This document shows positions 39,359 to 51,993 of a stretch of DNA of 64,000 bases, in pieces (the stretch's first letter is position 1; each line of letters starts with the position of its first letter). The notes beneath the pieces were generated by a model that was not told where the DNA came from, did not search any database, and was given only the letters and a program-made list of their open reading frames with translations. A program made the position numbers and the translations under genes. This DNA is from an uncultured bacterium (GTDB lineage Bacteria; Verrucomicrobiota; Verrucomicrobiia; Verrucomicrobiales; DEV007). The stretch lies in the NCBI GenBank assembly GCA_963977015.1, contig CAXBMO010000018.1, positions 1 through 64,000 of the forward strand. The letters are read 5' to 3'.

Positions 39359-40714
39359 ATGAACTCGTCCCAGACTCGAAGAAATTTTCTCCGTGGAACC
39401 GGAGCCTGCATCGGCATTCCCGTTTTTGAATCCATGCTTTCCACCGCAACCGCGGCGGGTTTGCCTCAACCCGGCACCACGGCGACTGGCGCCCCACTCC
39501 GCATGGCGGTTGTTTACAAGCCGAATGGCGTCAACTACGACCGATGGAAGCTTGAAAAGACGGGCCAGGACTACGATTTGAGCCCCACGCTGCAGCCGCT
39601 GGCCAGTTTCAAAAAGGATTTCCAGGTTTTCACGGGATTTGAGCATCAATTTGGTTGGGGACGTCTCGATGGCGCCGGCGATCACGCGAGAGCAAACGCG
39701 ACGTTTCTGACCGGTGTTCGCCCTCACAAGACGGCGGGTTCCGATATTCGCCTCGGCATCTCATTTGACCAGGTGATGGCGAACGCGATTGGCGATCAAA
39801 CCCGTCTCGCCTCTCTCGAACTCAGCTGCGACGGCGTTCGCAAATCCGGTGCCTGCGATTCCGGCTACTCCTGCGCCTACCAGTACAACGTTTCCTGGCG
39901 GAGTGAAACCCAGCCCATGACGCCGGAATCGAACCCACGCCTGGTCTTCGAACGTCTTTTTGGGGCCGGAACCGGGGCCGAACGCACCGAGAATCTCAAG
40001 CGCCGTCAAGTTCAGCAGCGCAGCATCCTCGATTTCGTGATGAGCGACGCGAAAAAGCTGCACACCGCATTGGGCCGCAACGATCAGCAAAAGCTGGACG
40101 AGTATTTGACCGGAATTCGGGAAGTTGAGCAGGCGATCGAAAAGTCCGAGCGCTTTGGACTTCCCCCCGAACCCGGGATCCCCGCTCCATCTGGAATCCC
40201 AGGGAACTTCAGCGACCACCTCAAGCTCATGTTCGACATGATGGTTCTGGCCTTCGAGACCGACTCCACCCGGGTCGCAACGTTCATGCAGAGCTACGAC
40301 GGAAGTAACCGGACGTTCCCCGATGTCGGCGTCAAAGAAGGCCACCACGGTCTCTCACACCACCGCGGCAAATCGGAATCGCTCGAGAAACTGGCCAAAA
40401 TCGACCTGTTTTACTCGGAACATTTCGCGTATTTCCTCCAGAAACTCCGCGAGAAGAAGGATGCGGACGGAAACACCCTACTCCACAACTCCATGGTTCT
40501 CTGGGGCAGTGGACTGAGTGATCCGGATCGCCATCGCCATGACAACCTGCCGATCGTCCTGGCCGGAAACGGGGGCGGTCAACTCACACCAAACCGCCAC
40601 ATTCAGTTTGGGGAAAACAAGCCCATGACCAACCTGTTCCTCAGCATGTCAGAGAAAATGGGAGTGCCGATCGATCAGTTTGGCGATTCGACCGGGAAAA
40701 TCGCTTCCATCTAG
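39359..40714 (+). CDS. DUF1552 domain protein
   Basis: 'RRNFLRGTGACIGIPVFESM', 'PNGV', 'CDSGYSCAY', 'NPRLVFERLF', 'HHGLSHH'. Confidence 0.9.
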   Translation: MNSSQTRRNFLRGTGACIGIPVFESMLSTATAAGLPQPGTTATGAPLRMAVVYKPNGVNYDRWKLEKTGQDYDLSPTLQPLASFKKDFQVFTGFEHQFGWGRLDGAGDHARANATFLTGVRPHKTAGSDIRLGISFDQVMANAIGDQTRLASLELSCDGVRKSGACDSGYSCAYQYNVSWRSETQPMTPESNPRLVFERLFGAGTGAERTENLKRRQVQQRSILDFVMSDAKKLHTALGRNDQQKLDEYLTGIREVEQAIEKSERFGLPPEPGIPAPSGIPGNFSDHLKLMFDMMVLAFETDSTRVATFMQSYDGSNRTFPDVGVKEGHHGLSHHRGKSESLEKLAKIDLFYSEHFAYFLQKLREKKDADGNTLLHNSMVLWGSGLSDPDRHRHDNLPIVLAGNGGGQLTPNRHIQFGENKPMTNLFLSMSEKMGVPIDQFGDSTGKIASI

Positions 40715-41972
40715 CCCCGCGCGCCCCGGGCTGGCTTGTTCCGGCTGTTCAGGCCAACGCAACCGAATCACCCGACGATCCTGGCGGGCAAATCCCAACG
40801 GGATTTCGCATGAACAGCCCAGTGTTGCCGAAGGCTACGCTGGGATTACCGAGCCAGCACGAATCCAATCCTGAAGGGATTGCGGAAGGCTTCGGGCGTC
40901 CCTTCCGGGACGCATCCTGGCACCGTCTCTGATCCGGTGGTTGCGCTGCGCTTCACCGACCGGCTAGGTTCGGGATGAGCCTCCGGCTCTCTGCTTGACC
41001 CATCCGGCGAAGACGATGGATGGGAAAAGGACATGGTTGTCTCACGCTTTCAGCGCTCGCGAATGCGGGCATCTTGCCCCGGGGCTTTGCTCGCGTGGGC
41101 TCGCGCACCCCAGGCTGGCAGGTTCTGGCTTTCGGCCAGCTCTAGCCAGAGAACGAAACACCCAGCAGGAAGCCGGAAAAGAAATCGAAAACGTTGGCGA
41201 GGCCTGAAAGGCCGAAACACGCCAGCCCGGGGCACCGCCCCGGGTCAAAGATCCGCAAGAATCGAGCGCTGAAAGTGCAATACAATCGCTCTATGTCTCA
41301 CGCTTTCAGGGCTCGCTCGCGACTGCGGGCATCTTGACCCGGGGCTTTGCTCGCGTGGGCTCGCGCACCCCAGGCAGGCAGGTTCTGGCTTTCGGCCAGC
41401 TCTAGCCAGAGGGCGAAACACCCAGCAGGAAGCCGGAAAAGAAATCGAAAACGTTGGCGAGGCCTGAAAGGCCGAAACATGCCAGCCCGGGGCACCGCCG
41501 GGTCAAAGATCCGCAAGATTCGAGCGCTGAAAGTGCGAGACAATCGCTCTATGTCTCACGCTTTCAGCGCTCGCAACCACGGCCATCACCACCCGGGCTT
41601 TGCTCGCGTGGGCTCGCGCACCCCGGGCTGGCCTGTGATGACCTACAGGCCAACTCTCTGACTCGTGCTGTGAAGCGGACAGGATTGTCCGCACTCCTTG
41701 GCTGGCTCACTCCATCGCACCCCATCAGGCCACTGCGACCAAATCACCCGACGATCCTGGCGGGCAAAATCCCAACGGGATTTCGTACGAACAGCCCAGT
41801 GTTGCCGAAGGCTACGCTGGGTTTACCCGGGCAGCACGAATCCAATCCTGAAAGGATTGCGGAAAGCTTCGGGCATCCCTGCCGGGACGCATCCTGTCAC
41901 CGCGACTTTTCCGGTGGTTGCGCTGCGCTTCACCGACCGGCTAGGTTCGGGATGAGCCTCCGGCTCTCTGCT
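40715..41972. repeat. Nested REP/REPIN-like palindromic repeat cluster (A-B-B-B'-A)
   Basis: About 230 bp repeat A at 40766-40995 and 41742-41972; about 257 bp repeat B starting at 41038, 41294 and 41552 (partial); many GAAA-loop hairpins. Confidence 0.9.
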
Positions 41973-42024
41973 CGTTCCTTCCGTCTGCGGGGAAGCAGCC
42001 CAACCCTCGATCGGGGTTGCCAAT

Positions 42025-43488: not shown

Positions 43489-43632
43489 GAGGGCACAGAC
43501 GGCATGTTTGCGATCGCCCAGGTCAATCCCCAAGGTCGCTTTCCGATAGATGGTAGGTCGTGTCGTTTTCATCAGCAGAGAGTCTATCAACCTCGTCCAG
43601 CGACGTGGCGCTCTGCCTTCTCATCTAATCTT
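43489..43632 (-). mobile_element. Truncated left end of the IS110/IS1111-type element (IR plus the first ~28 transposase codons)
   Basis: Identical except for one base to 48983-49126; joined to GGCTAAC-AAG at the end of cassette 3. Confidence 0.92.
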
Positions 43633-43633
43633 G

Positions 43634-44101
43634 TTAGCCTTTTAGTCTTCCGCGCCACCGGTTGTCGAGCTCTTGCCGGAATGCGGGAGGATCTCGATGG
43701 CTCAGCCACCATACTACGGTTTCATAGCGCTTCTTCAATTCATCGGGTAGATCTTCACAAAGTCTGTTCTTCGCTGCGTTTTGGGTCGCTTCAATTCCTT
43801 CGACTTCCGCCAGATACCATGGAAGCTCCTCCACGCTCACATCCCACTTCGGGATCAGGCGCCCAAGGTCACTGCCGATGTCGCCATCATAAGGTGGCTT
43901 GAGGAGCCAGAGAATCCCTCCCGCTACTTCCTGAGCAGCGAATCGATTCGTGTGATCGTCTTCGAAGACGCTCAGCATCGCATCCCGCAAGGCATCACTA
44001 TCGCAATTGCGCAGTCGGCGAACGAGATGCTGAATCGCTTGCCATCCATTCGGCCGATCTAGGGACGCGTATAACTCAGCTTTGATTTCGTCCGCGTCCA
44101 T
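43634..44101 (-). CDS. Integron cassette ORF 3, hypothetical protein (155 aa)
   Basis: Begins right after (GTT)AGCC; its stop lies inside the complementary inverse core GGCTAAC. Confidence 0.8.
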   Translation of the reverse strand: MDADEIKAELYASLDRPNGWQAIQHLVRRLRNCDSDALRDAMLSVFEDDHTNRFAAQEVAGGILWLLKPPYDGDIGSDLGRLIPKWDVSVEELPWYLAEVEGIEATQNAAKNRLCEDLPDELKKRYETVVWWLSHRDPPAFRQELDNRWRGRLKG

Positions 44102-44877: not shown

Positions 44878-45174
44878 CAATCGGCGCCTACCCACAAAGC
44901 CAAGTCATCCTAACACCTGCCAAATCGGGATGTCTTGGGAACGTGCGGACTCGTCCCGCGAAAAACCCGCAACTCGTCATCGCTCCTGCCTCCGCTGGGG
45001 GCTCGGACGCCACCAAGGCGCTGCCTTTCGCGTTGCTGGTGACGAATCGGCGGAGCGATTCGTCACGCAGGCCTGTGCGCGTCACTTTGCAGGATCGCCC
45101 CAGTGTCGCGTGGTCCGTAAGTCGCTCACCCTCAGCCTGAAATCGAAACCGCAAAGGAGGCATGAGGGCCCGTT

Positions 45175-47072
45175 ATCGGGTAGGAGGAGGGGTTGCCCCC
45201 TCCGTCCTCCCACACCACCGGGCATACGGTTCCGTACCACGGCGGTTCACGAAGTGGACGCATAGAAGCGAACCGAATCCAACAATCTAACAAGTCCACG
45301 TAAATCAAAGAACTTTCGGGGCATCGCCTTATTCAGATGCGAGGCTCCGGCATTCCACCACGGGCCCCGACCATTGTAGGCAGAGGCTGAAGCGCGCGCT
45401 TCATCAACCCCCAAGCCCATCAGCTTGCGCCGACGGGTTTTGGGCTTCTTCCACTGTCGCCAGAGTACACCTCGCAGCCTGCGCCGCAGCCATCGGTCCA
45501 GTTCCTCCAATACGCCCTTCACCTCGGCGTGCCGAAAGTAGGAGGCCCAGCCACGCAGCAGCGGGTTGAGATCCTCCACAATGAACCGCTCCAAATTCCG
45601 GCCGCGTCCGTGCCGAAGCAGGGCTTTGACCTTCTGGCGCAAGCGCCGCAGCGATTCGTTCGACACCTTGAGTCGTGCTTGATAGTGCATCGTTAGGCTG
45701 TAGCCAAGGAACGAACGGTTCCAAGGCCGGTCTACCGCGCTCTTTTCGGCGTTGACCTTCAACTTCAGATGTTTTCCCAGCCAGATGGTCAGGTTTTCGA
45801 GCACGCGTTCGCCTGCTGTCCGGGATGAAACGTAAATGTTCACATCATCGGCGTAGCGGCAGAAGCGATGCCCGCGTTTCTCCAGATCTTTGTCCAACTC
45901 GTCGAGTAGGATATTGCTGAGCAGCGGCGAGAGCGGGCCGCCTTGTGGCGTTCCCTGACGGCGCGGCCGCACGAGGCCGCCGTCCATCATACCCGCTTGC
46001 AGGTAGCGGCGGATCAGTCGCAAGACCCGTTTGTCCTTCACTTTACGCATCACACGGGCCATGAGCACGTCGTGGTTGACGTTGTCGAAGAACTTTTCCA
46101 GGTCCATATCGACGACCCAGCGCCGCCCGCCTCGCACGTGCTCGCGCATGGCTTTCACCGCCTGATGGGCGCTGCGCCCGGGCCGAAAGCCATAGCTGGA
46201 GTCACTGAACGTGGGATCGAAGATCGGGCCCAACACTTGCGCAGTCGCCTGTTGAATCAGACGGTCGAGCACCGTGGGTATGCCCAGAGTTCGTTCCCCC
46301 TTTCCTCCCGGTTTGGGGATTTGCACCTTACGTACTGCGTTTGGCCGGTATGTTCCGGCCAGCAGTTGTTCTTTGATTTCGGGCCAATGGATTTTGAGGA
46401 AGGGGCGCATTTGCTCCCAGCTCATGCCATCGGCCCCGGCGGCCCCTTTGTTGCGTTCTACCGCGTGGAGGGCACGCCACATGTTCTCACGATCGACGAT
46501 TGCCGCCATCAGGTCGGCTTCTTTGGATGGGTTTCCATCTGGGTTGGCCGGAACGCTCGTTGACGCCCCACATTCCAACAGCCCTGGCGGATTCTGTCCG
46601 TTACCTCTGCCGGGTGGGTCAGGCATCTCAGCCTTCTGTTCTGCATCTGCTTCGTTCATCGACAACTTGGTTGGTTAACCATCACACTTCATGTTCGGGC
46701 CTTCAGCCGGGTCGATCTCCGGCCTACTATGCCCTCTGCTGACTTCTGGCGCGTCATCCCAGCACCTCTCAATGCTGGTAGCACATGGCAACACGCCAGA
46801 TCTCCCCGGGTAATGCGCATTCACCTCCGCACTTATCCCCGCCACATATACATCAACACCTTCTGTGCAAGTATGGGACTTCGAATGTGTTGGCCTTCTC
46901 ATCCGGTATTGATGCCTCATATGTGATTTCTGTTCGTCGGGGTAGTGTTTTGCCTACGGCTTCCTTCAGACTCCACCTCACGGTGGACGCCCTTGCCGCT
47001 CAGCTAGCGGTTCCCCTTGCCGGGTCCGCGGAGGACTTGAACCTCCAAGTGAATGCGCCCTGCCGGGCGCAC
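45175..47072 (-). mobile_element. Group IIC intron, apparently full length (1898 nt)
   Basis: 5' GTGCGCCCGGCAGGGCGCA; short DV GAACCGCCGTGGTACGGAACCGTATGCCCGGTGGTG with CGC triad; 3' CCTACCCGAT; inserted just after a hairpin. Confidence 0.93.
45247..46665 (-). CDS. ltrA: Group II intron reverse transcriptase/maturase (no endonuclease domain)
   Basis: 'RTLGIPTVLDRLIQQA', 'SYGFRPGRSAH', 'DLEKFFD', 'GTPQGGPLSPLL', 'RYADD', 'LRGWASYF'. Confidence 0.95.
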   Translation of the reverse strand: MSMNEADAEQKAEMPDPPGRGNGQNPPGLLECGASTSVPANPDGNPSKEADLMAAIVDRENMWRALHAVERNKGAAGADGMSWEQMRPFLKIHWPEIKEQLLAGTYRPNAVRKVQIPKPGGKGERTLGIPTVLDRLIQQATAQVLGPIFDPTFSDSSYGFRPGRSAHQAVKAMREHVRGGRRWVVDMDLEKFFDNVNHDVLMARVMRKVKDKRVLRLIRRYLQAGMMDGGLVRPRRQGTPQGGPLSPLLSNILLDELDKDLEKRGHRFCRYADDVNIYVSSRTAGERVLENLTIWLGKHLKLKVNAEKSAVDRPWNRSFLGYSLTMHYQARLKVSNESLRRLRQKVKALLRHGRGRNLERFIVEDLNPLLRGWASYFRHAEVKGVLEELDRWLRRRLRGVLWRQWKKPKTRRRKLMGLGVDEARASASAYNGRGPWWNAGASHLNKAMPRKFFDLRGLVRLLDSVRFYASTS

Positions 47073-47127
47073 CAACAACCGATAGCTCTTGGGCTAAGCC
47101 CGGAAGCTATCTTTGGGGTTGTTCGGC
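47073..47127 (+). other. attC-like terminal hairpin of the IS91-like remnant, joined to the inverse core of cassette 2
   Basis: With the intron removed: GTTCAAC-AACCGATAGCTCTTGGGCTAAGCCCGGAAGCTATCTTTGGGGTT-GTTCGGC (RYYYAAC ... GTT, internal stem GATAGCT/AGCTATC). Confidence 0.6.
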
Positions 47128-47134
47128 TTGGTCT

Positions 47135-47527
47135 TCATTTGGGTGCGCGGTCCGGTTCGGGGTATCGCTGGGGAACCTGTGGATCATAGAAGCCACAGCC
47201 CAAGCTGTGTGCAACGTCTATAATCCTGTTCAGAACCTCGGAATGGTCGAGCAGCTTGTATCCGCAGGTAATAACAATCAAATGCACACTGTGCTTGTCG
47301 GCATGACAGAAGTTGACCTCGAATCCAGAATCAAATCCCCGCCAAATCAACTGGCCGTGATCTAATTCGATCTCTGGGAACGCCTTCTCGAAGCGGTCAA
47401 TCACATCCTCGCGGGGGAACGCATCAACTTCGGGATTCGGACGCTCCTGTGAGAGGGTATCCACTCTCATACCTGCATCGCCAACAAAAGGCTTCTTCTC
47501 GCGCCAAAAATAGAGGTCGTAGCTCAT
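47135..47527 (-). CDS. Integron cassette ORF 2, hypothetical protein (130 aa)
   Basis: Preceded by core GTTCGGC (47545-47539), 11 nt before the ATG; followed by the complementary GCCGAAC (47127-47121). Confidence 0.82.
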
Positions 47528-47538
47528 CTGATTTTTCT

Positions 47539-47658
47539 GCCGAACGTCCGAGGTGTGGCAGCGGCTACTGAGAGCGCCACCTCGAAACAGGGTTGAGTGT
47601 TGAAGTAAAGAGGGTCATGCCGACTCGGGGCGTGTAGCCGCTTGTCCACCACCGCCTT
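47539..47658 (-). other. attC site of cassette 1 (distal part; its R'' GCAGAAC lies at 49133-49127, on the other side of the IS)
   Basis: Reconstructed GCAGAAC-AAGGCGGTGGTGGACAAGCGGCTAC...GTAGCCGCTGCCACACCTCGGAC-GTTCGGC, an imperfect palindrome of about 127 bp. Confidence 0.85.
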
Positions 47659-47670
47659 CCATGAGAAGGC

Positions 47671-47998
47671 CATCAAGTAGTAACATCAAAATTTCAATTT
47701 TGCTAGGGTTTGTTGTTGGGCTGGGTGGTGGTGGTTTCAGGGATGAAGGTTGAATCGCGCTTCCATTCGCACTCGTTTGGTAGAGCCACTGTTCGCTGGG
47801 CTTCGGTGCATGTTTGGATCCGGTTCATCTCTGTTCTATCACAAAGAAAAGGACGCTGCTATCTTGTTCCCGCATTCCTAACTCATAAGGTTTGATGCTG
47901 ACGCATGGACCGCAGTCGCCCCAAAGGTTGGTTGCTGGCGTTAGCTTCGCAGTCGTCCAGGAAAGGCGTTCTTGGCTTTTGAAAATTCATGTCGGTTT
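47671..47998 (-). ncRNA. Candidate bridge/seek RNA region of the IS1111 element
   Basis: Non-coding region downstream of tnp with TGCG-GGAACAAG (target match, 47874-47863) and TGCG-AATGGAAG (donor match, 47771-47760); RNA boundaries unknown. Confidence 0.7.
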
Positions 47999-49066
47999 TC
48001 AGGCGCTGGCTAACTTCATCGGCTCATACGCGGTATCGTTCTTCCAAATTGTCATCATCACCACCGCCAACTTCCGGGCGGTCGCGACCACGGCTTTCTT
48101 CTTCGCGCCACGACCGCCTCGTTGCGCTAGACGCAGGCCGCGGATTTGCAGATCGCACTCTTCGCCAAACGGTCCCAACAGATATTGGGCGCTACCGACG
48201 AGGAGGCGACGCAGATAAGCGTTCCCACATTTGCTAATCCGCAGGGACTTGTCGACCCCGCCGGATTGATCGCGCCGCGGCACCAAGCCGAGATAAGCTC
48301 CCCCATCGCGAGGGTGACGGAAACGTTGGGGATCGCCAATTGTGAGGATAAAGCAAAGCGCCGTGATCGGCCCAATCCCACGGATCTCGCGCAAGCGTTG
48401 GCTCTCCGGATAGCGTTCCTGACACAACCGCTCAATCTCGCGGTCCAGTTCCCGGATCTTTGCCGTCATCGTGTCGATCACTTGCAACGAGGGCTCGATC
48501 ATGGCTAACACCTCAGCCTCGTCCCCCTGCAGTAACATTTGAGCCCGACGGGCGAAGCAGGTCGTTTTGGGCGATGGCAGGCGAATTCCCAAACCTTTGA
48601 GTGTGAAGCGCACCGCTGAGATCACGTCCACGCGTTGGCGCACCAGATTGTCGCGCAGCTTGATCTGAAGAAGGTCGCGCTGGGCCTGCTCGCTACCGTG
48701 CACAATGGGATGCAACAGACTCGCATCCACCCGAGCCAGCTTCGCCAACATCCGCGCATCCAACTCATCGCTCTTGCGTTCGTTTTGGTAGATCGCACGC
48801 AGTTTACGTGAGTTCGCCACAATGACTTCGCATCCCAACTTGTCGAGTAGCCGACTGATCCACAGGCTATGACTTCCCACCTCCATAGCGATCCGTGCTT
48901 TGGGAAAGCGCTTCACCAACATCGCCAACCGTTCTCTGGTATTGGGGATCGTCATTTCCGCGACAATCTCGCCCTTCGCGTTGAGGGCACAGACGGCATG
49001 TTTGCGATCGCCCAGGTCAATCCCCAAGGTCGCTTTCCGATAGATGGTAGGTCGTGTCGTTTTCAT
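47999..49066 (-). CDS. IS110 family DEDD recombinase/transposase
   Basis: RuvC-like 'GIDLG', 'MEVG', 'KSDELDA'; 'IRGIGPITA'; 'YLGLVPRRDQSG' with catalytic Ser; 'VATARKLA'. Confidence 0.95.
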   Translation of the reverse strand: MKTTRPTIYRKATLGIDLGDRKHAVCALNAKGEIVAEMTIPNTRERLAMLVKRFPKARIAMEVGSHSLWISRLLDKLGCEVIVANSRKLRAIYQNERKSDELDARMLAKLARVDASLLHPIVHGSEQAQRDLLQIKLRDNLVRQRVDVISAVRFTLKGLGIRLPSPKTTCFARRAQMLLQGDEAEVLAMIEPSLQVIDTMTAKIRELDREIERLCQERYPESQRLREIRGIGPITALCFILTIGDPQRFRHPRDGGAYLGLVPRRDQSGGVDKSLRISKCGNAYLRRLLVGSAQYLLGPFGEECDLQIRGLRLAQRGGRGAKKKAVVATARKLAVVMMTIWKNDTAYEPMKLASA

Positions 49067-49118
49067 CAGCAGAGAGTCTATCAACCTCGTCCAGCGACGA
49101 GGCGCTCTGCCTTCTCAT

Positions 49119-49724
49119 CTAATCTTGTTCTGCTTCTTTGGCTGTTATCGAATTACGTATGGCTGCCTTGAAGTGATCCAGCTTGCTGCCATTCCAGCTA
49201 AAGTCCCAATCTTCTGGGTCAAACTTCTGATTTAGCATTTTACCTAGTTCTTCATTATCTAGGCTTGCTGCCCAACGATTCTGCTCCTTCACGCACAGAG
49301 CCTCGATGCGAAGACGCTTATCTTCATCGTAGCGAATTCCTCGGCATTCAAGATACGCATGTGTCGCCTCATGGACTAGTAAGGCAGCATGAAAAGCGAT
49401 AGAAAACTCGACATCCCGTTCAGGCCAAGACTCTTCAAAGTTAATCGCGCAAGCATGCGCCCAGTGCCAATATTCAGCACCCGGCGTAGAAAGGCTCGTG
49501 TTCACGATCCAATCCAAATTCTTAGTTACGCGAGAAAACCTACGCGAATCTGTGTCCTTGAGAAGATTCAGTGAGGCTAGAATCGTGGTGTGAAAATCCA
49601 CACTTCTTCTCCTAACGTCCACAATCCGAATCGAATAGACCTCCTCGACTGTCATTGATGACCACAATCGGAGGGTGAGCTTGCGAGATACTATGCCGAT
49701 ACAGCGCCGTATGCTTCCGATCAT
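49119..49724 (-). CDS. Integron cassette ORF 1, hypothetical protein with HExxH zincin-like motif
   Basis: 'LLVHEATHAYLE'; lower GC than the flanks; bounded by GTTCTGC and GCAGAAC. Confidence 0.78.
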   Translation of the reverse strand: MIGSIRRCIGIVSRKLTLRLWSSMTVEEVYSIRIVDVRRRSVDFHTTILASLNLLKDTDSRRFSRVTKNLDWIVNTSLSTPGAEYWHWAHACAINFEESWPERDVEFSIAFHAALLVHEATHAYLECRGIRYDEDKRLRIEALCVKEQNRWAASLDNEELGKMLNQKFDPEDWDFSWNGSKLDHFKAAIRNSITAKEAEQD

Positions 49725-49733
49725 AATTTCTTA

Positions 49734-49760
49734 GCAGAACAGTATATTATTTCCCTTGAA
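49734..49760 (-). other. attI-like site at the head of the cassette array
   Basis: ...GGGAAATAATATACT-GTTCTGC: core matches cassette 1 R''; AT-rich upstream with no attC-like hairpin. Confidence 0.55.
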
Positions 49761-50314
49761 GGGCTGATATCCAAATCACGCAATTGGACCTAAATTCTTA
49801 AGGGATGTTGATCGTTTAATTTGGGAATTCATGATTTCTCTAAAAAGGTATGAGGATTATCAGTTCCTAGACTGCCAACCCAAGATTGCAGATGGACTAG
49901 CAATACGGGATATCGTCGTTTTCCTCAAGGAAGTTCCGACGTGGTGAGGACTTTTCTTGGAAGGGGCCGTTCTCATTTTTGATTTCCACTTCTCGACCAG
50001 GAATTATTGGGACATGGGGATGCGAAGACGGGCAGTTGCATTTGCATGCCATGAATCGTGGGATGGATGGACAGGAAGATGGAAGTTGGGGGCTTGGAAG
50101 TGACGGCGACAGGATGTCGCCGCTACCGCGTAGGCTGAATCCGGCGGTGAGAGTGGCTGCACCGGATTCCTCCGTGCGTTCGACGGAAAATGCCACCGAT
50201 CTCGAAACCCGGCGTTTTTGCAATCTTGCGACGTTGTATTGAAGGAAATCCGCGAAGTTGCGCCATCCTAACACGCTCATCTTCCTGCAAAATCTCTGAG
50301 CAGTTCATCCAAAT

Positions 50315-50377
50315 CGAAAACCCGTTTAGCTTAAACGAGAACCCGCTTGGCTGAGACGAAAACCTGGTTAGCTGAAG
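50315..50377. repeat. Three tandem 21-bp imperfect direct repeats
   Basis: CGAAAACCCGTTTAGCTTAAA / CGAGAACCCGCTTGGCTGAGA / CGAAAACCTGGTTAGCTGAAG. Confidence 0.75.
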
Positions 50378-50598
50378 GCGTTTTATCTATAACCAGGACC
50401 CGGGGACGTTTATCCGGTTCTCCTGTTTTCAGGGTTTGGTCGGGGGCGGGTTGCGTTTGGTTTGGTTCTTTTGGGCTGCCAGGGCGGCGATTTTTCGGGT
50501 GAGAGTTTGGGTGTGATGGGGATGCTCGGATTCGACTGCCAGTCGAATCTACGGGGCTGGTTCGGAATTTTGGCAAATTCCGCTACCTCCTCACTTCC

Positions 50599-51993
50599 CT
50601 AGGCAAGAATGTCGTGCAGCACGTTGCCGTGAACATCGGTCAACCGGACGTCCCGCCCCGCGTATCGATAGGTAAGGTCTTCGTGGTCGATCCCGACCTG
50701 GTGGAGGACGGTGGCCCAGAGATCGAAGATGGTCGCTTTCCCATCCACGACATGGTAGCCGTAATCGTCCGTGGCGCCGTAGGCGGTGCCACCTTTGATT
50801 CCGCCGCCAGCCATCCAAACACTGAATCCAAAGGGATTGTGATCGCGGCCATTTGAACCTTGGGAAAATGGGGTTCGGCCAAATTCTCCCGTGAAAATAA
50901 TGAGCGTTTCATCAAGCATGCCGCGTTGCTTGAGGTCCTTGATCAATGCGGCAATGGGCTGATCGACCTGTTGCCCCATGGCGCGATGTCCCTCTTCGAG
51001 CGCGCCATGTTGATCCCAGGGATTGGGGGCTCCGCCAGCTCCAAGCTTTTTGGTTAGGCACGAGAGTTCGACAAAGCGGACGCCGCGCTCCACCAATCGC
51101 CGTGCGAGGATGGCTTGCCGGGCGTAGGCCGCTTTTTCGGGATCGGGATCGTCGAGCCCGTAGAGCTTTTTCGTAATCTCGCTTTCGCCACGCAGGTCAC
51201 AGACTTCCGGCACGGCGGATTGCATGCGGAAGGCGGTCTCGTAGTTCATGATGGCGGCTTCCACATCTGCGTCGCCACCGGTGGATTTGGCGAAGCCCTG
51301 ATCGAGACGGTTCACAAAGTCCAATCTGGATCGCTGAATGGACGCAACCTGGGACGGCGCAACGTTGGGGATGGCCGGTGTGTTGTCTGCCTTGATGATG
51401 GAAGCCTGGTGCTGGGCGGGAAGAAATCCGCTGCTGAACAACCCAACGCCCCCATGAGGCGCGACGGCGTGCCCACTCTGCAGGACCACATAGCTGGGCA
51501 GGTTTTCGTTGGCAGAACCAAGCCCATAGCTCATCCAGGCACCGGCGCTGGGGTGGCCCAAAAACGGAAAGCCGGAATGGATCATGAAGTTCCCTTGCGC
51601 ATGCTCGTTCACGGGAGTGGTCATGGAGCGGATGACCGCGATGTCGTCGGCACAGTCTCCGATTTGTTCGAAGATCTCGCTGACGGGCAACCCGCTTTCC
51701 CCGCGATTGCGAAACGCGAACGGGCTGGGCATGATCTTGCCGTTGTTGTTGAACTGGGTCCGCTCAACCTTCATCGGCATCTCCTGGCCCGCTTCCTTCT
51801 TGAGCCTTGGCTTGGGATCAAAGGAATCGACGTGGGAGACGCCACCCGACATGTAGCAGAGAATGACGTTCTTGGCCTTGGCCTTTGGCAGGGCGGCGTT
51901 CGTATTGGGAGCCAGCAAACCTGACAAGGCGACCAAGCCGAACCCACTCGAGGCGCGGGCGAGGATCTGGCGGCGGGAGATTTCAGCGAACAT
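50599..51993 (-). CDS. DUF1501 domain protein
   Basis: 'SRRQIL', '[20 protein letters not shown]', 'FTGEFGRTP', 'GRDHNP'. Confidence 0.92.

Follow-up and report, generated by a model that had tools for sequence, protein, structure and literature searches.

An IS1111-type insertion sequence with a putative guide RNA for attC-like sites in an uncultured Verrucomicrobiales bacterium

The stretch analysed here, referred to as the window, covers 64,000 nucleotides (positions 1 to 64,000 of contig CAXBMO010000018.1, assembly GCA_963977015.1) of an uncultured bacterium of the order Verrucomicrobiales (DEV007). It carries, on its minus strand, a 1,468-bp insertion sequence (IS) of the IS1111 type (49123..47656, the core being counted once, at the right end), and this raises the question of what leads the recombinase of such an element to the place where it is inserted. 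In 2024, IS110/IS1111 elements were reported to possess guide RNAs (PMC11208160; PMC11187229), and those of IS1111 members, named seekRNAs, co-purify with the transposases and are required for movement (PMC11187229). We consider the element to be an intact IS of the IS1111 group (IS110 family), with a DEDD/Ser recombinase most likely guided by a non-coding RNA (ncRNA) from approximately 47958-47752 (minus strand) and aimed at attC-like sites, a reading to which we give a probability of about 0.88.

Recombinase, ends and covarying putative guide segments

The recombinase matches PF01548 (DEDD_Tnp_IS110, E 1.7e-22, residues 20-164) and PF02371 (Transposase_20, E 1.5e-21). Residues D23, E68, D106, D109 and S274-G275 are unchanged across 8 aligned relatives; the serine motif GLVPRRDQSGG, which holds S274-G275, lines up with RRYESGS of IS621, and the segments KSDELDARMLA (second DD) and RRDQSGG (serine motif) align with the IS621 and ISCro4 transposase chains. 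The sub-terminal inverted repeats ATGAGAAGGC and GCCTTCTCAT form a perfect 10-mer, within the 7-17 bp of the IS1111 group, the right copy lying 2 nt from the core. In minus-strand reading, the left tip of the element is ATTAG, beginning at 49123, and the right end reads ...CTCATGG (GCCTTCTCATGG, to 47659), then AAG at 47658-47656, then the right flank GCGGTGG from 47655. The longer non-coding end lies 3' of the transposase gene (tnp), with 39-57 nt before the start codon on the left and 340 nt past the stop codon on the right, which is the layout of IS1111. All four left ends present in the genome are preceded by xAACAAG (GCAGAACAAG, GGCTAACAAG, ACCGAACAAG and AGCGAACAAG), the three others following TAACAAG or GAACAAG, and the organism's own genome thus suffices to fix the boundary of the element and the left half of its target. 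The original prediction, made from this DNA alone, had proposed an intact DEDD and Ser recombinase of the IS1111 type, sub-terminal inverted repeats and two parallel motifs in the non-coding region, all of which were recovered: TGCG-GGAACAAG lies at 47874-47863 and TGCG-AATGGAAG at 47771-47760 (minus strand). When the 340-nt non-coding region was submitted to 200,000 mononucleotide shuffles, the left 7-mer occurred in 4.0%, the donor 7-mer in 1.9% and both together in 0.077% of them, and the 9-mer GAACAAGAT, made of the flank and of the first 2 nt of the IS, in 0.28%.

From a mechanistic point of view, the ncRNA would contain two internal loops, a target loop and a donor loop (Table 1). In the 3' strand of the target loop, GAACAAG, made of the AAC of the attC R'' side, one base and the AG core, has the sequence of the target top strand and would thus pair with the bottom strand; the AT that follows the core is identical to the initial dinucleotide of the element. 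Across the loop, the 5' strand is complementary to the top strand on the right of the core. In the donor loop, AATGGAAG reproduces the right end plus the core, and the 5' strand shows partial complementarity to the left end. Insertion takes place 3 nt past the AAC of an attC-like site, with the element oriented like the cassette open reading frames (ORFs), and, in a subclade with a doubled 5' half of the target loop, one left guide could be combined with either of two right guides.

This arrangement was confronted with about 120 related elements from genomes and metagenomes, namely 16 found in genome contigs (identity 30-74%, or 52-74% when just the full-length relatives used are counted; most are from Verrucomicrobiota), 80 from metagenomes and 29 that come from a set of 300 other genomes of the order, 17 of which contributed. 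Left ends of relatives were found with the repeat ATGAGAAGGC as an anchor, allowing at most 1 mismatch. Two conserved modules appeared in the non-coding regions when the first twelve relatives were aligned, and one covariance model was built for each, R1 for the target loop and R2 for the donor loop. R1 matched 90 of the 93 sources, the negative ones being locus L019 as well as L050 and L054, whose contigs end just past tnp, and R2 gave 79 matches; all matches lie downstream of tnp, on its strand. For both models, the window contains a single match, as does the entire 6.9-Mb genome, and the loops of the window score 63 and 66 bits, in the range of those of the relatives. A search of 45000-51000 against Rfam 15, at E up to 1, returned a group II intron only and no relevant match.

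The left guide follows the insertion site. The 9 nt located just 5' of the outer-stem 3' strand were compared with the left junction of the same element, starting from 92 model matches, of which 89 were non-identical and 81 had a left junction. Guide and junction are identical in 57 of these 81 rows and differ by 1 mismatch in 14 and by at least 2 in 10, while exact agreement occurs in 17 of 4,664 cross pairs with a different guide. Twenty distinct left-guide values were found, each beside a matching flank, such as TAACCAG with ..CTAACCAG at the junction, CGTTGAG with ..GTCGTTGAG, and also TGTCAAG, CCACTAG, GCCGGAG and ACAGGAG. The last 2 of the 9 bases track the first 2 of the element (AT with ATTAG, AA with AATAG, TA with TAGGA), as does the AT at 47862-47861 in the window, and this post-core dinucleotide resembles the handshake guides described for IS621 (PMC11208158).

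The right guide, located on the 5' side of the target loop, matches the region beyond the core by complementarity to the top strand. This complementarity extends to at least 7 of 8 positions in 40 of 70 rows, versus 6.2% of 4,668 cross pairs, and 8 of 8 in 18 of 70 rows, versus 0.9% of the cross pairs. Examples among the 44 right-guide classes of the clade are CATCGCCT with AG followed by GCGATG, GTAAACCCG with CGGGTTTAC, and CGAAGAC with GTCTTCG. The order of the segments, with the top-strand match 5' of the bottom-strand match, is the order reported for IS1111 seekRNAs (PMC11187229).

The stems that close the loops vary together as well. In alignments fitted to the models, which favours structures, 98.4% of 700 cells of the target-loop outer stem are paired and 9 of its 10 pairs vary on both sides (29-50% paired in slid controls), and in the stems of the donor loop, where pairing reaches 96.3%, both sides vary in 5 of 10 pairs, including GCAC/GTGC versus GGAC/GTCC. 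Compensatory swaps were already visible in the first, unfitted MAFFT alignment. By contrast with these comparisons, the whole 342-nt non-coding region folds no better than its shuffles (z = 0.94), and its structural signal is informative only when relatives are compared.

The donor side is less variable. ATGGAAG is constant in the relatives, as is the right end CATGGAAG, and the match therefore holds everywhere but cannot covary. As a candidate right-donor guide, AUCCAA may pair with the left end: complementarity reaches 7 of 7 in L014 (ATCTAAA versus TTTAGAT), 6 of 6 in L091, and 5 of 6 in L048 and in the window (versus TTAGAT), and in most relatives no register is fully complementary. When the relatives were inspected, the 2 nt that follow GGAAG of the donor guide showed no consistent handshake-like agreement with the first bases of the right flank.

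Taken as a bispecific guide with GAACAAG in a target loop and ATGGAAG in a donor loop, the original prediction thus gains support from sequence comparison, since GAACAAG tracks the insertion site and the stems show compensatory changes; a bispecific guide, as expected in the IS1111 group, would accordingly be present. The covariation with the insertion sites of homologs, proposed at that time as a check, is seen across the 20 guide values, whereas folding the non-coding region, proposed likewise, gave no signal. Among the short stems then pointed out, GCAC/GTGC covaries with GGAC/GTCC, and GCAT/ATGC is the inner stem of the target loop. The predicted core, AAG or a 2-3 nt (A)AG, has to be shortened: AAG is present at both junctions of the element, but AG only is common to all targets and all right ends of the family, so that the core is AG and the third A is coincidental here. 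Similarly, the GATC predicted to be the right-donor guide overlaps AUCCAA, but the best placement differs and its support is partial.

Segments of this kind might also act as DNA, either as junction copies recognised by a protein or as products of gene conversion, with no RNA involved. Such a view would account for the left-guide 9-mer being a literal copy of the left junction, and the guide is known here from sequence alone. However, the loop-closing stems change on both sides, which is expected of a folded single strand and not of duplex DNA sites, and the order and position of the segments match those of the seekRNAs of IS1111 (PMC11187229). We thus regard a DNA-only role as very improbable, and retain a guide that would act as RNA and be bound by the recombinase.

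Several relatives deserve a separate mention. L016 carries the guides of L015 (CGTTGAG / CGAAGAC), yet its site, GATGAAAAGAG followed by CCAGTG..., fits the guides of the L055/L056 element (TAAAGAG / GGCACTGG); trans action of a guide RNA, or copies that recombined with each other, could explain this. A relative with 63% identity is present in genome G223 as five identical copies (L119, L130, L133, L136, L138), which occupy five sites of one repeat, TTCAACAAG followed by (G/A)CCGCGGTG..., all five with the same single left-guide mismatch (target C, guide T), and their right guide pairs one base farther from the core. L092 possesses two complete target loops in tandem (1490-1557 and 1595-1663), with the left guides TATCCAG and TAACAAG.

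The attC-like target

The right flank of the element belongs to a family of repeats of approximately 125 nt, which start with xxxAAC-AAG-(A)CGCGG... and end with ...GACGTTCxxx. A three-round nhmmer profile detected 14 members on 10 contigs of the organism's own genome, a number to be taken as a minimum, since attC sites keep their structure better than their sequence. When uninterrupted members are folded (bottom strand, DNA parameters), they form long imperfect hairpins with the AAC box paired to the GTT box; single-base bulges are found on the AACAAG-side arm, which is the arm where the extrahelical bulges of attC belong. The boxes of the interrupted site are GCAGAAC and GTTCGGC, and two small minus-strand ORFs without a Pfam match flank the site, the next ORF beginning 12 nt past GTTCGGC; tnp is on the same strand as both. 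Likewise, of the upstream open frames, the longer one lies on the element's strand in 38 of 46 related loci. The window contains at least three attC-like sites within 6 kb (49133, ~47125 and ~43645), the third showing an AAC-AAG box ahead of a truncated copy of the element at 43635. Both in the window element and in its clade, insertion occurred 3 nt after AAC, and this lineage splits the site between R'' and L''. Many relatives sit behind the canonical boxes GCCTAAC or GTCTAAC. Finally, the genome encodes an integron integrase (TIGR02249, 291 bits versus a cut-off of 265, contig C1). The attC target proposed at the outset is thus supported by the attC-like repeat family around the flank and by this integrase.

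Another palindromic repeat, similar to repetitive extragenic palindromes and merely carrying AAC...GTT ends, could be mistaken for an integron attC. Indeed, the integrase gene is on another contig, our profile finds 14 sites only, scattered over 10 contigs, the R' box is here GTTCGGC and not a strict GTTRRRY, and the attC call was made from our own profile and folds, not from the standard attC covariance model of IntegronFinder. This explanation nevertheless appears improbable in view of the canonical boxes that precede relatives, the length of the repeats and their imperfect hairpins with bulges on one arm, their position directly between small same-strand ORFs with a start codon so close to R', the upstream frames of the related loci, and the group II intron right behind a neighbouring palindrome (see below). 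With a small doubt, which stems from the way the call was made, we thus consider the target to be an attC-like site in a cassette-like array.

The group II intron occupies 45100-47071 (minus strand) and starts at GTGCG, directly after the attC-like palindrome 47125-47072 (GCCGAACAACC...GGTTGTTG). Rfam models of domains D1-D4 match at 46987-46698, and a reverse-transcriptase ORF lies at 46665-45247. The intron shares its strand with the cassette ORFs; for group IIC-attC introns, a bottom-strand location has been described. In run X4, one low-depth contig diverges from the window at 47533, just past the R' box GTTCGGC (47545-47539), which may mean that some members of the population have another cassette downstream. 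Tandem and inverted repeats of ~260 nt (families D1-D10 and I1-I2) are found at 40700-42000, upstream of the cassette-like region.

Mobility and the doubled guide arm

A second insertion site of the element was seen in another strain. Contigs of run X2 indeed contain a variant that is ~99% identical to the window element and whose right junction reads AAG followed by CGCATGGAG...; this different right junction points to recent movement. Together with the intact gene and the perfect ends, it argues for activity. If the element moves through a circular intermediate, the joined ends would set TTGATG 17 nt from TAGATG (49121-49116), and we infer from these sequences a candidate junction promoter.

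Several observations nevertheless weigh against an active, RNA-guided element aimed at attC. Regarding the guide, 10 of 81 rows, L016 among them, have at least two mismatches between guide and left junction; GAACAAG occurs 1,082 times in the genome, and the left guide alone therefore cannot give specificity; the best arm fits the window element's own right flank at just 6 of 8 positions; and the right-donor guide reaches 5 of 6 in the window, with partial covariation in the relatives. To these must be added the absence of a folding signal in the isolated region, the model-fitted stem counts and the basis of the attC call, already mentioned. Regarding the element, only one full copy is present in the 51 contigs of the assembly, along with three 5' fragments (147, 161 and 360 bp); contigs of four DNA runs compared over 47300-49500 revealed no circle junction and no empty site, and a search for RNA runs containing the stretch gave none.

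The scarcity of full copies, the imperfect fit of the right flank and the missing joints would suit a dead relic, i.e., an element that was formerly RNA-guided but is immobile in this copy, its motifs being merely inherited. However, contigs drop rare forms, and the missing circle and empty-site joints therefore say nothing about absence. Moreover, this copy retains an uninterrupted ORF in which no invariant catalytic residue is missing, its sub-terminal repeats match perfectly, the scores of its two loops resemble those of the relatives, and the X2 variant has a right junction of its own. A dead relic thus seems unlikely to us, and we favour an element that is still guided and mobile.

The 5' fragments, which are 96-99% identical to the element and each cut at a different internal point, lie at 43489-43635 in the window, at C36:40089-40448 and at C19:70873-71033. 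The truncation junctions 48772 and 48983 are also found in the marine metagenome runs X1 and X4, and run X3 has 48772 only.

A distinctive feature of the target loop is its 5' half (outer-stem 5' strand, right guide and AGCA), which is doubled in the window's subclade and tripled in L115. Among 100 elements for which the right junction is present, a pattern search yielded eight distinct multi-arm ones: the window element (L027 being the same element, inserted at an identical site), L011, L012, L028, L112, L114, L116 and L115. L028 has GGATG in both arms and CATCC in the single 3' strand, where the others have GGACG with CGTCC, and both arms therefore follow one partner. The observed right flank is fitted by the first arm in L012 (8/8), L028 (7/8), L112 (7/8) and the window (6/8, arm 1 with GGCGGTGG), and by the last arm in L011 (8/8), L116 (8/8) and L115 (7/8), L114 being a tie. 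In the X2 variant, the right flank CGCATGGA is the perfect complement (8/8) of UCCAUGCG of arm 2, one base off the usual register, an offset also present in the five G223 copies. Under constrained folding, the energy is -33.3 kcal/mol when arm 1 is paired, versus -29.6 kcal/mol for arm 2. Among uninterrupted attC-like sites of the genome, six read AAG followed by ACGC..., arm 2 pairing with GACGC, versus AAG followed by GCG(T)... for arm 1. The CGTC earlier put forward as the right-flank guide turns out to be the 3' end of the second copy, CCATGCGTC, and the better-fitting first copy, CTAACGCC, had been missed.

We tentatively suggest, at slightly less than even odds, that the duplicated arm constitutes a natural multi-target guide RNA, in which one left guide would be used with two (three in one relative) alternative right guides. 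If this is true, a single element could enter several attC classes that differ on their variable side, by a natural multiplexing of guides through alternative RNA folds. In the text consulted of papers on bridge RNAs (PMC11208160 and PMC11208158) and on seekRNAs, a duplicated guide arm is not mentioned, no dedicated literature search having been made, and the 2026 review PMC13604230 has no occurrence of 'duplicat' or 'tandem'.

Two small hairpins occur in the ends of the element. One, near the right end (47702-47687), reads CAAAAT..ATTTTG here and TGAAAT..ATTTCA in relatives, with compensatory changes; the other, in the left end (49102-49085), reads CCTCGTC-GCTG-GACGAGG and also shows compensatory changes among relatives.

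Table 1. Coordinates of the element, of its putative guide segments and of the interrupted site in the window.
Feature	Position	Strand	Details
Left target flank GCAGAACAAG	49124..49133	minus	attC R''-like GCAGAAC, then AAG; last two bases are the AG core
Whole IS1111-type element	47656..49123	minus	Ends from four left junctions in the own genome and more than 100 relatives
Left sub-terminal inverted repeat ATGAGAAGGC	49109..49118	minus	5 nt from the left tip
Recombinase (transposase) gene	47999..49084	minus	361 aa from TTG 49084, or 355 aa from ATG 49066
Predicted target-loop 5' arm 1	47933..47958	minus	Outer stem GGACGACTGC 47958-47949; right-target guide CTAACGCC 47944-47937; AGCA
Predicted target-loop 5' arm 2	47895..47922	minus	Outer stem GGGCGACTGC 47921-47912; right-target guide CCATGCGTC 47908-47900; AGCAT
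Inner-stem 5' strand GCAT	47898-47895	minus	Within arm 2
Inner-stem 3' strand and predicted left-target guide	47861..47875	minus	ATGC 47875-47872; spacer GG; guide and core GAACAAG 47869-47863; AT 47862-47861
Target-loop outer-stem 3' strand GCAGCGTCC	47851..47859	minus	
Predicted donor loop	47748..47824	minus	Stem GGATC 47821-47817 / GATTC 47756-47752; inner stem GCAC 47809-47806 / GTGC 47772-47769
Candidate right-donor guide AUCCAA	47819-47814	minus	Partly complementary to the left end
Predicted left-donor guide AATGGAAG	47767-47760	minus	Sequence of the right end and core
Right end	47656..47676	minus	-35-like TTGATG 47676-47671; right repeat GCCTTCTCAT 47670-47661; GG; AAG 47658-47656
Rest of the interrupted attC-like site	47527..47655	minus	R'-like GTTCGGC 47545-47539; start codon of the next ORF at 47527

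Relation to known systems

The IS1111-attC group (ISPa21, ISPst6, ISKpn4, ISPa25) reportedly goes back to Tetu & Holmes 2008 and Post & Hall 2009. RNA-guided IS110/IS1111 recombinases are under development as programmable genome-insertion tools, the IS1111 branch being the less understood one. In this respect, the present clade offers a large natural retargeting series, with its 20 left-guide and 44 right-guide classes on one scaffold, junctions included, from which the pairing registers of an IS1111-type RNA, the mismatches it tolerates and a handshake-like dinucleotide can be read without experiment. If the arms are alternative guides, they would widen the target range at kept specificity and offer a compact design for multiplexed guides. 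As regards integron biology, environmental attC sites would be entered by a second IS1111 lineage, in the opposite orientation.

The seekRNAs of ISKpn4, ISPst6 and ISPa25, attC-targeting members of IS1111, were demonstrated experimentally by Siddiquee et al. (2024; PMC11187229). This kind of guide is therefore already known, and the original prediction had overrated its novelty. Among the papers of the library searched, on IS1111, attC and integrons, none was listed on the lineage of the element. What is new here is this lineage, its insertion point, its orientation and the duplicated arm.

With the IS1111-attC group, the window element shares an IS1111-type recombinase, sub-terminal repeats, a long non-coding region 3' of tnp and the targeting of the R'' (5') side of attC. 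By contrast, that group inserts between CTAACAATTCG and TTCAAGCCG, 6 nt after AAC (PMC13604230, Table 1), versus 3 nt in the window clade, and lies antisense to the cassettes (PMC3001079), whereas the window clade is in sense orientation. The recombinase is, moreover, at most about 37% identical to IS110-family genes on PLSDB plasmids, among the matches listed. On account of insertion point, orientation and this level of identity, the element is therefore assigned to the IS1111 group, apart from the described IS1111-attC subgroup.

As for ISEc11 and ISXne4 (PMC11187229), the stems are kept while the target-matching bases are swapped along with the insertion site; here, the same behaviour extends over 20 values of the left guide and 44 classes of the right guide in a single clade, as deduced from sequence. 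With the IS621 bridge RNA (PMC11208160; PMC11208158), the proposed ncRNA would share a two-loop bispecific design, and the systems have in common a 2-nt core and a DEDD plus Ser active site. In IS621, the RNA lies 5' of the gene and its guides come in the reverse order relative to the window element; its handshake bases, located in the loop, match the partner DNA after strand exchange, whereas in the window clade handshake-like bases follow the left-target guide.

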